IMG/VR virus record: IMGVR_UViG_2526164633_000022
Location: 1 to 63,168 of that record
DNA length: 63,168 bases
Direction: 5' to 3' (one strand)
From: a virus
Lineage: Duplodnaviria > Heunggongvirae > Uroviricota > Caudoviricetes
The notes beneath the pieces were generated by a model. It was not told the origin of the DNA. It saw only the letters and a list, made by a program, of their open reading frames with translations, and did no database searches. Position 1 is the first letter of the stretch. Each line of letters opens with the position of its first letter. Positions 29,999 to 32,929 of the stretch are shown here, piece by piece. The translations under genes were made by a program, and so were the position numbers.

Positions 29999-30896
29999 GA
30001 ACTGGAAAAACATTACTATTTATAAACTTTCTCGTGAGGCGGATCTGACCGACTTAGAAGATAAAAAGAAAATGATCCTTTTCACGCCATGCGGTAGTCA
30101 GGATATGGCCAAGTTCGGTTTTGTATCGCCATTTGGTGATAATTCCGAAGTTATCGCTATGCATGGAAATGGTTTTATCCTTGTTGAAGCAAAGCGCGAA
30201 ACAAAAATTCTTCCCCCGCCGGTTATCCAGCGAGCTATTCAAGAAAAAATTGAAAAACTTGAGGAAGAACAAGCGCGTAAACTGAAGAAAACAGAGAAGG
30301 ACTCCCTGAAAGACGAAGTTCTGCATTCTCTTCTGCCACGGGCTTTTTCAAAGTTTTCTGTTATCCAGGCGATCTACGACGGTTCAACTAAACGTATCTA
30401 TATCAATGCCAGCGCGCGGCAGGCAGAGGATATGCTCGCGCTTATGCGTAAATCTCTGGGTTCTCTTCCTGTTGTTCCCCTAAGTGTTGAAAATCCCATT
30501 GAATTAACGCTGACCGACTGGGTACGTGATGGTAGTGCTCCACATGGATTTCAAATGGGGGATGCGGCAGAACTTAAGGCAGTGCTTGAGGATGGCGGTA
30601 TTGCCCGAGTGAAAAAGCAGGATTTGGGAAGCGATGAAATTTCCACACACCTGGAAGCTGGCAAGCTCGTCACTAAGTTGGCACTCGACTGGCAGAACCG
30701 CATTAAATTTACACTGGACCATAACTTCAGCCTTACCAGCGTCAAATTTGCGGATGAATTGCTTGATCAGAACTCTGATATTGATAGTGAAGATGTAGCG
30801 CAGCGACTGGACGCAGATTTCTTCCTGTTGACCAGTGAAATTTCGTGCCTGGTTGATGCTCTGGTAAATGCCCTTGGTGGAGAGGCTAAGCAGTGA
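29991..30896 (+). CDS. hrdC: RdgC homologue (recombination-associated)
   Basis: Start at MFKNWKN; near-colinear with recalled E. coli RdgC ([11 protein letters not shown]..., [38 protein letters not shown]). Confidence 0.85.
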
Positions 30897-32911
30897 AAGA
30901 GCTGTGCTATGGATCTGTTTGCAGTGGAATTGAAGCCGCGAGTATTGCCTGGGAACCGTTGGGTATGCGTCCGGCGTGGTTTGCTGAAATCGAGCCTTTT
31001 CCATCTGCCGTTCTTGCGCACCGCTGGCCCCATGTCGCCAACCTTGGCGACATGACAAAACTTGCCAAAAAAGTCCTGGCCGGGGAAATCGAATCCCCTG
31101 ATGTGCTCGTCGGGGGAACACCTTGTCAGGCATTCAGTATCGCGGGATTAGGTGGTGGGCTTGATGATGAGCGTGGCGCGCTAACTTTAAAGTATGTGGA
31201 GCTTGCAAATGCAATTGACGACAAACGGGCTGAGTCATTTCTCAAACCAGCAGTTATCGTCTGGGAAAATGTCCCAGGAGTCTTGTCATCGGCAGATAAC
31301 GCCTTCGGATGTTTCCTTGCCGGATTGGCTGGAGAAGATGCGCCATTCGAACCAGGTGATCGACCTGAATCAGGAAAAAGTAACGCATTCTGGCGGTGGG
31401 ATGTCAAAACCGGTTGCCATGCTCCAAAGTGGCCGCAGTGTGGTTGTATTTATGGACCGCAGCGAAAAGTGGCCTGGAGAATCCTTGATGCCCAATACTT
31501 CGGAGTGGCACAACGACGCCGACGCGTGTTTGTTGTCGCAAGTGCTCGAACAGACCTCGATCCCGCAACGGTACTTTTTGAGTTCGAAGGCGTGCGCCGG
31601 AATATTGCGCCGAGCAGAGGCGAGGGGAAGGAAACTACCAGATATACTTCAAACATCGCTATCAGAACTTGCGATGATACAAACATAATTGCCATGGCAC
31701 ATGGGCAAGGAGGGGCTGAGATAAAAACCGATAATTCGGCACCAACTTTGACATGTAACCATGAAGCACCAATTGTATTGCTCGGCGACGGTAGAATGCG
31801 CCGTCTTACCCCTGTCGAATGTGAAAGGCTGCAAGGTTTTCCTGATTGGCATACGTTGATCCCTACGGAAAAGCGTAAAAAAGTTAATTCAGATGAACTG
31901 GCATATCTGCACAATCACTATCCAGATTTAAGCGAAGAAGAGGCCGCAATGCTTGCAGCTGACGGACCGCGTTACAAAGCGATCGGCAATAGTATGGCGA
32001 TACCAGTAATGCGCTGGATTGGCGAGCGGATAACCAAGGCTGCATGTCGGCAGAATGAAGGGCGTGAAACAAAAGAGCGAAAAGTTAAACCAGCGGCAGA
32101 ATTCGAACGGTCCATATTCAAATGGGCTGGTGGAAAATTTGGTGTTCTGGAACAAATCTTTCGCTATTTGCCAGAAGGGAAGCGCCTGATTGAACCTTTC
32201 GTCGGTGGTGGAGCTGTCTTCATGAATGCCGGATACCAGGAAAATCTGCTAAATGATGTGAATGCTGACCTGATTAACTTTTACAAGACTCTGCAACGCG
32301 AGGCGCATTCACTTATCACACTGGCGCATCAGTTTTTCCAGGACTACAACACACAGGAAGGATACCTGGCAGTACGGAATGCGTTTAACAAACAAGTCTA
32401 TGATGATTTACATCGCGCAGCGGCGTTTTTGTTCCTGAACCGACATTGTTTTAACGGATTGACGCGTTACAACCAGGCCGGTGAGTTCAATGTCGGTTAT
32501 GGGAAGTATAAAACTCCGTATTTCCCATTACAGGAGATGGAAGCCTTCCTCGGTGCGGAAGGGCGGTCTGAGTTTGTATGCGGTGATTTTGCAGCGGTGA
32601 TTGAAGCTGCCGGAGAAGGAGATGTCATCTTTTGCGATCCGCCGTATGAACCGCTTCCAAATACAGAGGGATTCACGAACTATTCCGGTCATGACTTTAA
32701 GTTTGAAGAGCAAAAACGCCTGGTGTCTCTGTTGACGGATGCTCATCGTCGAGGTGCAAAGGTTCTCATTACTAACAGTGGCGCGCCAAACATCAGAGAG
32801 CTTTATCATGACAGTGGCTTCAGAGTGGAACCTCTTTTTGCCAGACGTTCTGTGTCTTGTAAGGGGGACACTCGAGGTGTAGCTCATGACGTTTTGGGTA
32901 TATTGCTCTAA
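30893..32911 (+). CDS. dmt: Bifunctional DNA methyltransferase (N-terminal C5-cytosine, C-terminal Dam-like N6-adenine)
   Basis: 672 aa; GTG start overlapping hrdC stop; C5 motifs PCQAFSIAG and ENV; Dam-like [11 protein letters not shown] and FCDPPYEP. Confidence 0.85.
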
Positions 32912-32929
32912 TAAATTTATTAGTGTAAT
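32902..32929. promoter_or_regulatory. Paired overlapping C1 operators
   Basis: ATTGCTCTAATAAATTTATTAGTGTAAT: two 17-mers in inverted orientation sharing TAATAAATTTATTAG; first overlaps dmt stop codon. Confidence 0.7.

Follow-up and report, generated by a model that had tools for sequence, protein, structure and literature searches.

A predicted fused C5-cytosine/N6-adenine methyltransferase gene of P7 type, with a putative C1 operator over its stop codon, in a punavirus

The locus described here is very probably the dmt gene of a punavirus (P1-family phage-plasmid) in its P7-type allelic form, with the divalent C1 operator Oban (Op72ab) at its 3' end. It lies in the IMG/VR virus record IMGVR_UViG_2526164633_000022, analysed over its full length of 63,168 nucleotides (hereafter the window), which is a punavirus sequence. 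The gene, its annotation as bifunctional and the operator Oban/Op72ab are already known from the GenBank records of P1 (AF234172) and P7 (AF503408), whose features include Dmt/Dam, Odmt, Obana/Obanb and P1ban/P2ban; the P1 record describes Dmt as methylating N6 of adenine in GATC and 'perhaps' C5 of cytosine, and the P7 record does likewise. Gene and operator belong to textbook P1/P7 biology, in which pac becomes cleavable through Dam methylation and Op72 silences the ban helicase operon in lysogens. Beyond this, we consider a reading, held at somewhat less than even probability, in which the C5 half is active as a 5mC methyltransferase with an anti-restriction role, lineages have changed its specificity by swapping target-recognition domain (TRD) cassettes, the catalytic Pro-Cys is the homing site of a mobile intein, and the window allele is either a homing target or the product of precise intein loss. 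P1-like phage-plasmids are abundant in Enterobacteriaceae, and the 5mC motifs of both cassettes, once known, would help to interpret the methylomes and restriction barriers of carrier strains.

Table 1. Features of the dmt-ban region, in window coordinates, with the basis of each assignment
Feature	Position	Strand	Basis
Odmt (former Op68), a C1 operator that overlaps the uhr-hrdC-dmt promoter Pdmt	29626..29642	+	1 mismatch to C1 consensus; co-linear with P1 Odmt/Pdmt and P7 Op(dam)
uhr	29714-29998	+	ORF seen; P1/P7 annotation transferred at constant offset
hrdC (RdgC family)	29991-30896	+	ORF seen; P1/P7 annotation transferred at constant offset
dmt (P7 'dam'), predicted fused C5-cytosine/N6-adenine DNA methyltransferase, 672 aa	30893..32911	+	ORF (stop included), profiles, P1/P7 alignment
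C5-cytosine methyltransferase half, aa 1-400	30893..32092	+	PF00145, 64-sequence alignment, AlphaFold, Foldseek
Pro77/Cys78 intein insertion site, unoccupied	31123..31124	+	Comparison with intein-bearing relatives
Variable part of C5 TRD, aa 241-302, P7-type cassette, with TL dipeptide (APTLT, aa 283-287)	31613..31798	+	P1/P7 alignment
Dam-type N6-adenine methyltransferase half, aa 405-672	32105..32908	+	PF02086, TIGR00571, E. coli Dam structures
C1 operator Obana (Op72a), holding dmt stop TAA (32909-32911) and P1ban -35 TTGCTC (32903-32908)	32902..32918	+	0 mismatches; P1/P7 annotation
C1 operator Obanb (Op72b), inverted, 6-bp overlap with Obana; overlaps P1ban -10 TAATAT (32926-32931)	32913..32929	-	2 mismatches; P1/P7 annotation
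dicF-like region	33026..33127	+	Offset transfer from P1 feature 68791-68892
Hybrid tRNA gene: P1 tRNA-Asn 5' acceptor strand plus rest of trnI (anticodon CAT)	33584..33660	+	P1 comparison, Rfam
ban (DnaB-like replicative helicase), controlled from Oban	33940..35304	+	ORF; 1365 bp as in P1

Reading frame and operon

At the DNA level, deposited genomes of punaviruses are 98.4% identical and P7 is 96% identical, and the gene order uhr-hrdC-dmt-Oban is the same. The single ORF of the initial annotation is borne out by translation, with 0 frameshifts and 0 internal stops; a split or frameshifted gene is ruled out by the continuous frame and by co-linearity with P7. That annotation had given the feature as 30893-32929, of which the start stands and the end does not: position 32929 closes the second operator, and the ORF ends at 32911. 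Its match to P1 Dmt was likewise right as to the gene, which is the same in both, and wrong as to the allele, the 672-aa form being that of P7 'Dam' (96% amino acid identity), whereas P1 Dmt has 754 aa. An alternative start at ATG 30909 is out of frame, and the records of P1, P7 and MH422554 all place the start at GTG 30893; this codon overlaps the hrdC stop TGA as GTGA, which suggests that dmt is translationally coupled.

By annotation transfer, dmt would be the last gene of the uhr-hrdC-dmt operon, with Odmt/Op68 covering the promoter. Given a C1 operator ahead of it, dmt should be silent in lysogens, and expression would be switched on upon C1 inactivation or infection. A CRISPRi screen of P1 in a dam+ host (PMC10695390) scored the gene as non-essential, which we count against our preferred explanation.

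Two methyltransferase halves and their variation

Both methyltransferase domains proposed earlier are recovered by a Pfam scan: PF00145 over aa 8 to ~380 (3.5e-36, 125.7 bits, cut-off 22) and PF02086 over aa 411-643 (6.5e-57, 193.6 bits, cut-off 22), alongside the NCBIfam models dcm TIGR00675 (3.1e-33, 115.8 bits, cut-off 100.65) and dam TIGR00571 (1.4e-74, 251.1 bits, cut-off 114.85). The motifs on which the fusion had been recognised, PCQ and ENV in the N-terminal half and Dam-like motifs in the C-terminal half, can all be read directly from the translation. In the former, PCQ occupies aa 77-79 (nt 31121-31129) and ENV aa 125-127 (nt 31265-31273), these forming part of motif IV (GTPCQ, aa 75-79, with Cys78 as nucleophile) and motif VI respectively; motif I is CSGIEA (aa 10-15), motif VIII QRRRR (aa 207-211; Q207/R209/R211), RRL...QG (aa 303-315) falls within aa 303-317, and motif X is GNS (aa 365-367). 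All family-invariant C5 residues are kept in a 64-sequence alignment, with TPCQ (aa 76-79), ENV, Q207/R209/R211, RRL...QG and GNS invariant or nearly so in the 63 relatives, and the SGIE form of motif I is the C5 family's own variant. The protein is one of a large subfamily associated with phages, with 4138 representatives at E<1e-30. An AF2 model of this half reaches a pLDDT of 82.7 overall and >90 over the catalytic core, and its top Foldseek matches are M.HhaI (2e-13), DNMT3A/B and M.HaeIII, at a probability of 1.0. By profile, motifs and predicted fold, the N-terminal half is a member of the C5-cytosine methyltransferase family. Over the TRD the pLDDT drops to <50 because the alignment is heterogeneous there, and the model therefore yields no proposal for the C5 target; none is inferable from solved structures either, as PDB sequence matches cover motifs IV-VI only. 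Position 87, in the loop after the catalytic Cys, is Gly in the window allele and Arg in ~95% of relatives, a second point counted against our preferred explanation; R87G as an inactivating change specific to the window was considered and rejected, for it is not unique, occurring in 6/120 close and 2/63 distant relatives.

Judged by sequence comparison, the window allele is of P7 type, and a clean swap of the C5 TRD cassette separates it from the longer P1 allele. The cassette has 0 nucleotide differences from P7 over 186 nt and its flanks have a dS of ~0.13; the P1 counterpart is a segment of 144 aa, unrelated in sequence to the 62 aa of the window, so that a different C5 target is likely. 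PLSDB has 184 plasmids with the P7-type cassette and 257 with the P1-type, and no description of a cassette swap in punavirus Dmt was found in the literature searched. The C5 half would most likely methylate a short sequence set by this exchangeable cassette, with protection of progeny DNA from host restriction as the likely effect.

Many close relatives carry a 341-aa Hint and LAGLIDADG intein exactly at the catalytic Pro-Cys; in the window this site is empty, and the codons flanking it resemble those of intein-bearing alleles. Distant family members also contain the intein, on which, in P1-like dmt, the literature searched gave nothing relevant.

It must be considered that only the Dam half may be functional, the C5 half having lost catalysis and persisting as a remnant that serves folding or DNA binding. 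The cautious 'perhaps' of the P1 annotation points this way, as do R87G in the catalytic loop and the Trp of the P1 reference allele at motif IV position 74, where Gly or Ala stands in the window allele and in every relative examined. Yet G87 is also present in other alleles, the hallmarks of the ten motifs and every family-invariant residue are in place, and dN/dS is equally low in the C5 catalytic part (0.10-0.19) and in the Dam half (0.07-0.19). Moreover, two alternative TRD cassettes are each kept in hundreds of plasmids, and the intein sits exactly at the catalytic Cys in 133 of the 471 dmt copies borne by PLSDB plasmids, a persistence that argues for a functional host protein, since the intein needs one. 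We consider a dead C5 half unlikely; the reading with an active anti-restriction enzyme keeps the less than even probability given above.

For the C-terminal half, an FxGxG-type AdoMet motif (aa 434-443, nt 32192-32221) precedes DPPY (aa 582-585, nt 32636-32647), the alpha-class order, and aa 405-669 align to the E. coli Dam structures 2g1p/4gbe at 1.6e-57. The E. coli-Dam equivalog model NF008152 scores 245 bits, below its cut-off of 441, and Dmt is therefore a member of the Dam family, not the equivalog of the host enzyme. On these comparisons the half is a Dam family N6-adenine methyltransferase, putatively GATC-specific.

A further alternative is that the Dam half is also made late in infection as a separate protein of ~320 aa, from an Lpa-dependent promoter LPdam2 (31881-31899) and the in-frame ATG 31949 (Met353). 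The P7 GenBank record does annotate a predicted late promoter inside dam, and the window holds a related -22 box, AAGTTAATT, to be compared with AAGT(G/T)ACTT, the form in six late promoters annotated in P7, together with a Shine-Dalgarno-like AAGAGG (31938-31943) 5 nt before the ATG. This box, however, is mismatched at a conserved position and is not the same as the box of P7 itself, TGAACT makes a poor -10 hexamer, AAGAGG simply follows from a Glu-Glu-Glu coding sequence, and the P1 annotation has no internal late promoter; a Dam-only product is thus improbable.

The two GATC-rich sites of the initial annotation map to the annotated P7/P1 oriR and pac/pacA. At oriR there are five GATC within 60 bp (27313-27367), four of them inside the interval 27314-27370 first assigned to it, and at pac eight in ~190 bp (59098-59282); each is the densest stretch of its length in the window. 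According to two reviews (PMC12707154, PMC11437467, citing Sternberg and Coulby 1990), pac of P1 has to be methylated by Dam or Dmt. In the P1 literature, the P1 enzyme methylates GATC and, in the lytic cycle, licenses the pacase to cut the GATC-rich pac, dam- hosts included. With dmt silent in lysogens, the proposed relevance of GATC methylation to both sites would hold for Dmt at pac in lytic growth and not at oriR in the prophage, which, to judge from the operator and the literature, would depend on host Dam.

The operator over the stop codon and the region downstream

The C1 operator consensus is the asymmetric 17-bp ATTGCTCTAATAAATTT, and matches at <=3 mismatches number 13 in the window against 0.24 expected, a count that no shuffle reached. 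Two of these form the overlapping inverted pair noted at the end of dmt, and the stop codon does lie within the first, and Obana takes its left part from the final 10 bases of the ORF (Ile, Leu, Leu and stop codons). By consensus, layout and position between dmt and ban, 32902-32929 matches the C1-controlled operator of P1, Op72ab/Oban. That AT-rich sequence is common at gene ends lends next to nothing to a chance juxtaposition without regulatory meaning, a practically negligible prospect against a perfect 17-mer with an inverted partner set off by the canonical 11 bp, the 13 operator-like sites and the same arrangement conserved and annotated in P1 and P7 across a DNA divergence of ~4%.

The suggestion that this site regulates the downstream ban region agrees, by analogy, with the P1 record, where Obanab (former Op72ab), over the dmt stop, 'controls expression of ban', and with that of P7. 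C1 bound to Obana and Obanb would cover both the -35 and the -10 hexamer of P1ban, a role annotated in P1 and P7, so that the unit of dicF-like RNA, tRNA and ban would be repressed; C1 at Oban may also block read-through from Pdmt. A strict sigma-70 scan gave no promoter at Oban because the -35 hexamer is weak (3/6 matches), and the ban promoter positions are taken from the P1 annotation. A literature search for Op72 gave unrelated papers only.

At the end of the dicF-like region, a terminator scan found a hairpin resembling an intrinsic terminator (33092-33111) with a T run behind it; the region had no Rfam match to DicF at E<=0.1. Further downstream, a deletion of ~1.6 kb joins tRNA-Asn to tRNA-Ile and removes tRNA-Thr, plp, upl and tciABC, with the junction in the shared D-arm sequence TAGCTCAG. 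The Rfam tRNA match to the hybrid gene covers model positions 8-63 only, and ARAGORN called no tRNA there, the same tool calling three in the P1 control. The same junction was present in 0 of the matching records (48 phage, 608 plasmid and 1721 E. coli).

Comparison with known systems

P1 Dmt (AAQ14041.1) resembles the window gene in position, in its GTG start over the hrdC stop, in domain order and in having Odmt and Obanab; its Dam half, annotated as GATC-specific, has only two amino acid differences from that of the window. P7 Dam (AAQ07538.1) is closer, sharing the length of 672 aa, the C5 TRD cassette, the operon and Op(ban) over the stop; the window allele differs from it by scattered substitutions, R87G among them, and lacks the tRNA-Asn, tRNA-Thr and terB/tci genes that P7 has downstream. 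Other 672-aa alleles of P1-like plasmids have 97-98% amino acid identity to the window, and the 1013-aa intein-bearing alleles 98-100% outside the intein.

The best structural matches to the C5 half, monospecific C5 methyltransferases of the M.HhaI/M.HaeIII type, share with it the motif order I-X, the TRD between VIII and IX, and PCQ, ENV, QxRxR and GNS. Identity to them is ~17%, motif I is CSGIEA in Dmt and FxGxGG in those enzymes, the TRD is unrelated, and Dmt has ~60 extra aa inserted after motif VI and before motif VIII (aa 130-190). Over its whole length the C-terminal half can be aligned with E. coli Dam (2g1p, 1.6e-57) and DpnM (2dpm, 9.8e-44). Equivalents of E. coli Dam K9, N120, L122 and R124, which we take to be its GATC-contacting residues, are conserved together with DPPY, and Y119, P134 and R137 are replaced by F, G and K. 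Unlike E. coli Dam, which is constitutive, Dmt is phage-encoded, fused to a C5 methyltransferase half and, as its operator predicts, C1-repressed.

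The dmt gene and the ban operator

The initial annotation described a C5-cytosine and N6-adenine methyltransferase fused in one reading frame, with a C1 operator over its stop codon; since records of P1 (AF234172) and P7 (AF503408) annotate both the gene and the operators, this reading is correct, its interpretation is supported and the feature is already known from public records. Compared over 2.7 kb, the locus shows 98.4% identity to punavirus genomes already deposited (MH422554 among them), ~98% to P1 and 96.1% to P7. In P1, dmt is annotated as a bifunctional DNA methyltransferase acting on N6 adenine in GATC and 'perhaps' on C5 cytosine, with uhr, hrdC and the C1 operator Odmt (formerly Op68) with promoter Pdmt upstream, and the divalent operator Obanab (formerly Op72ab) with promoters P1ban and P2ban downstream; the P7 annotation is the same, with the gene called dam. 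Features were placed in the window from the P1/P7 annotation by constant offset, as marked in the table.

Coordinates of features at the dmt-ban locus
Feature	Nucleotides	Residues	Basis
Odmt	29626-29642		offset transfer and independent consensus scan
uhr	29714-29998		offset transfer
hrdC	29991-30896		offset transfer
dmt	30893-32911 (+)		ORF listing
PCQ	31121-31129	77-79	
ENV	31265-31273	125-127	
Dam-like AdoMet motif	32192-32221	434-443	
DPPY	32636-32647	582-585	
P1ban -35 (TTGCTC)	32903-32908		offset transfer
P1ban -10 (TAATAT)	32926-32931		offset transfer
Hybrid tRNA gene/junction	33584-33660		alignment to P1

The fusion is a single 672-aa frame, unbroken by any frameshift, whose GTG start overlaps the TGA stop (cAGTGAaa) of hrdC, the upstream 301-aa gene of the RdgC family. 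Both predicted domains were matched in Pfam, as PF00145 (C5-cytosine methyltransferase; 3.5e-36, three stretches starting at aa 8) and PF02086 (D12-class N6-adenine methyltransferase; 6.5e-57, aa 411-643), and the NCBIfam models for Dam (TIGR00571, 1.4e-74) and dcm (TIGR00675, 3.1e-33) both exceed their cut-offs. The stop codon (TAA, 32909-32911) does lie within the first of two overlapping inverted operators: the C1-operator consensus of P1, ATTGCTCTAATAAATTT, is matched without mismatch at 32902-32918 (+), and an inverted copy on the other strand, at 32913-32929, departs from it at two positions. The suggestion that this site regulates ban agrees with the P1 annotation, in which Obanab 'controls expression of ban', and with that of P7. 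dmt belongs to an operon annotated as C1-controlled, and the end of its ORF occupies the same DNA as the ban operator and promoter.

Thirteen C1-operator-like sites with three or fewer mismatches were found in the window, against 0.24 expected, and no shuffle gave 13. The eleven further 17-mers, with 1-3 mismatches, lie at 13919, 15591, 29626 (29626-29642, the only one mapped to an annotated operator, Odmt), 41172, 44796, 44845, 46937, 58279, 62552, 63016 and 63099; such a scatter through the window would be expected of the P1 immunity regulon.

Regulation, GATC sites and the dmt-ban interval

In a lysogen, C1 bound at Odmt and Oban would keep dmt, the dicF-like RNA, the tRNA region and ban silent, so that methylation of the prophage oriR would rest on host Dam. 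On induction the dmt and ban units would both fire, the Dam half maintaining full methylation of the pac hexamers in fast-replicating DNA and the C5 half adding a protective mark. The two sites to which GATC methylation had been thought relevant are indeed rich in GATC: oriR holds five within 60 bp (27313-27367), and pac holds eight in 59098-59282, arranged 4 + 3 + 1, the densest cluster of the window, which falls within pacA, where pac cleavage is annotated. According to two reviews, packaging in P1 requires pac to be methylated by Dam or Dmt (PMC12707154, PMC11437467).

P7 also annotates a predicted late promoter, LPdam2, inside dam; its counterpart in the window (31881-31899) is a weak match and is followed at 31938-31951 by AAGAGG and then the in-frame ATG of Met353. 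A hypothetical Dam-only late product from this promoter counterpart and Met353 is conceivable but unlikely.

Downstream of dmt, 33026-33127 is co-linear with the 'dicF-like region' annotated in P1; its end, ~180 bp past the ban promoter, is formed by a strong hairpin (33092-33111) that with its T run resembles an intrinsic terminator. Rfam gave no DicF match in this region at E<=0.1. Beyond it, the window and P1 align as two blocks overlapping within 33591-33645, and in a three-way alignment the 5' acceptor strand of tRNA-Asn is joined to the rest of trnI (CAT) in the shared D-arm, TAGCTCAG. The ~1.6 kb missing relative to P1 (L004, ~1046-2575) holds the 3' part of tRNA-Asn, tRNA-Thr, plp, upl, tciA, tciB, tciC and the 5' end of trnI. 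ARAGORN found no tRNA over the whole window and recovered all three in a control on the P1 locus, and the Rfam tRNA match to the hybrid gene covers model positions 8-63 only. The deletion apparently arose by recombination between the two tRNA genes. None of the searched phage, plasmid and E. coli records contains the junction, so it represents either a genuine and unique deletion or an artefact of the assembly.

The C5 half and its empty intein site

In an alignment of 64 sequences from diverse relatives, T76, P77, C78, Q79, E125, N126, V127, Q207, R209 and R211 are invariant and residues of C5 motifs I, IX and X nearly so, and the window retains them all. An AlphaFold model of aa 1-400 has a catalytic core with pLDDT >90 and a target-recognition domain (TRD) <50, and among PDB structures it matches M.HhaI, DNMT3A/B and M.HaeIII best (probability 1.0). 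Pairwise dN/dS in the C5 catalytic part (0.10-0.19) is on par with that of the Dam half (0.07-0.19), both from small counts. The one departure lies in the loop after the catalytic cysteine, where the window carries Gly87 (codon 31151-31153) in place of a nearly invariant Arg, a variant shared by 6/120 close and 2/63 distant relatives. Judged from sequence and model, the C5 half is probably active. The reference Dmt of P1 c1.100 (L001) has Trp74 in motif IV (VLVWGTPCQ), a position that is Gly in 120/120 close relatives and Gly or Ala in 63/63 distant ones; with Trp74, the C5 half of this laboratory strain may be defective.

Among the matches listed from a search of 5.8 billion proteins, most close relatives are 1013 aa long, with Hint_2 and LAGLIDADG_3 domains. 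Their 341-aa intein (CFTAGH...VVHN), borne by P0002, P0055, L005 (825-1847) and L006 among others, aligns exactly between Pro77 and Cys78, which makes the catalytic cysteine residue +1 of the extein. It occurs in 133 of 471 PLSDB dmt copies; no published description of it was found in the literature searched. The C5-domain subfamily comprises 4138 representatives at 50% identity (E<1e-30), and among the best 150 of these, seven carry the intein at the same position and ten a C-terminal Dam domain, so the C5-Dam fusion recurs. The window dmt is without intein, with an empty site at 31123/31124 whose flanking codons are closer to intein-bearing alleles than to P1 or P7.

Comparison with E. coli Dam, P1 and P7

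Over aa 405-669 the Dam half can be aligned to solved structures of E. coli Dam (2g1p, 4gbe; 1.6e-57), keeping the equivalents of K9, N120, L122, R124 and DPPY. It differs from E. coli Dam by Y119->F, P134->G and R137->K, and from P1 Dmt at only two residues. K9, N120, L122 and R124 reportedly contact GATC in a Dam-DNA structure.

The proposed match to P1 Dmt holds for the homologous gene but not for the allele, P1 Dmt having 754 aa whereas the window protein and P7 Dam have 672 each. The three are nearly identical in alignment but for one block between motif VIII (...RRNIAP) and motif IX, which spans 62 aa in the window and P7 (aa 241-302; window 31613-31798) and an unrelated 144 aa in P1 (L001 2514-2945). 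The block corresponds to the variable segment of the C5 TRD, so the two alleles probably differ in the 5mC motif that they write. PLSDB plasmids carry the Dam half in 471 cases, the P7-type cassette in 184 and the P1-type in 257, and all four combinations of cassette with and without intein were found (672, 754, 1013 and 1095 aa). Cassette and intein polymorphism and C5 specificity are the only points possibly worth following up, and bear on the gene family more than on the window. The window and P7 cassettes show 0 differences over 186 nt against a dS of ~0.13 in flanking dmt sequence, which is consistent with recent exchange or transfer of the cassette.
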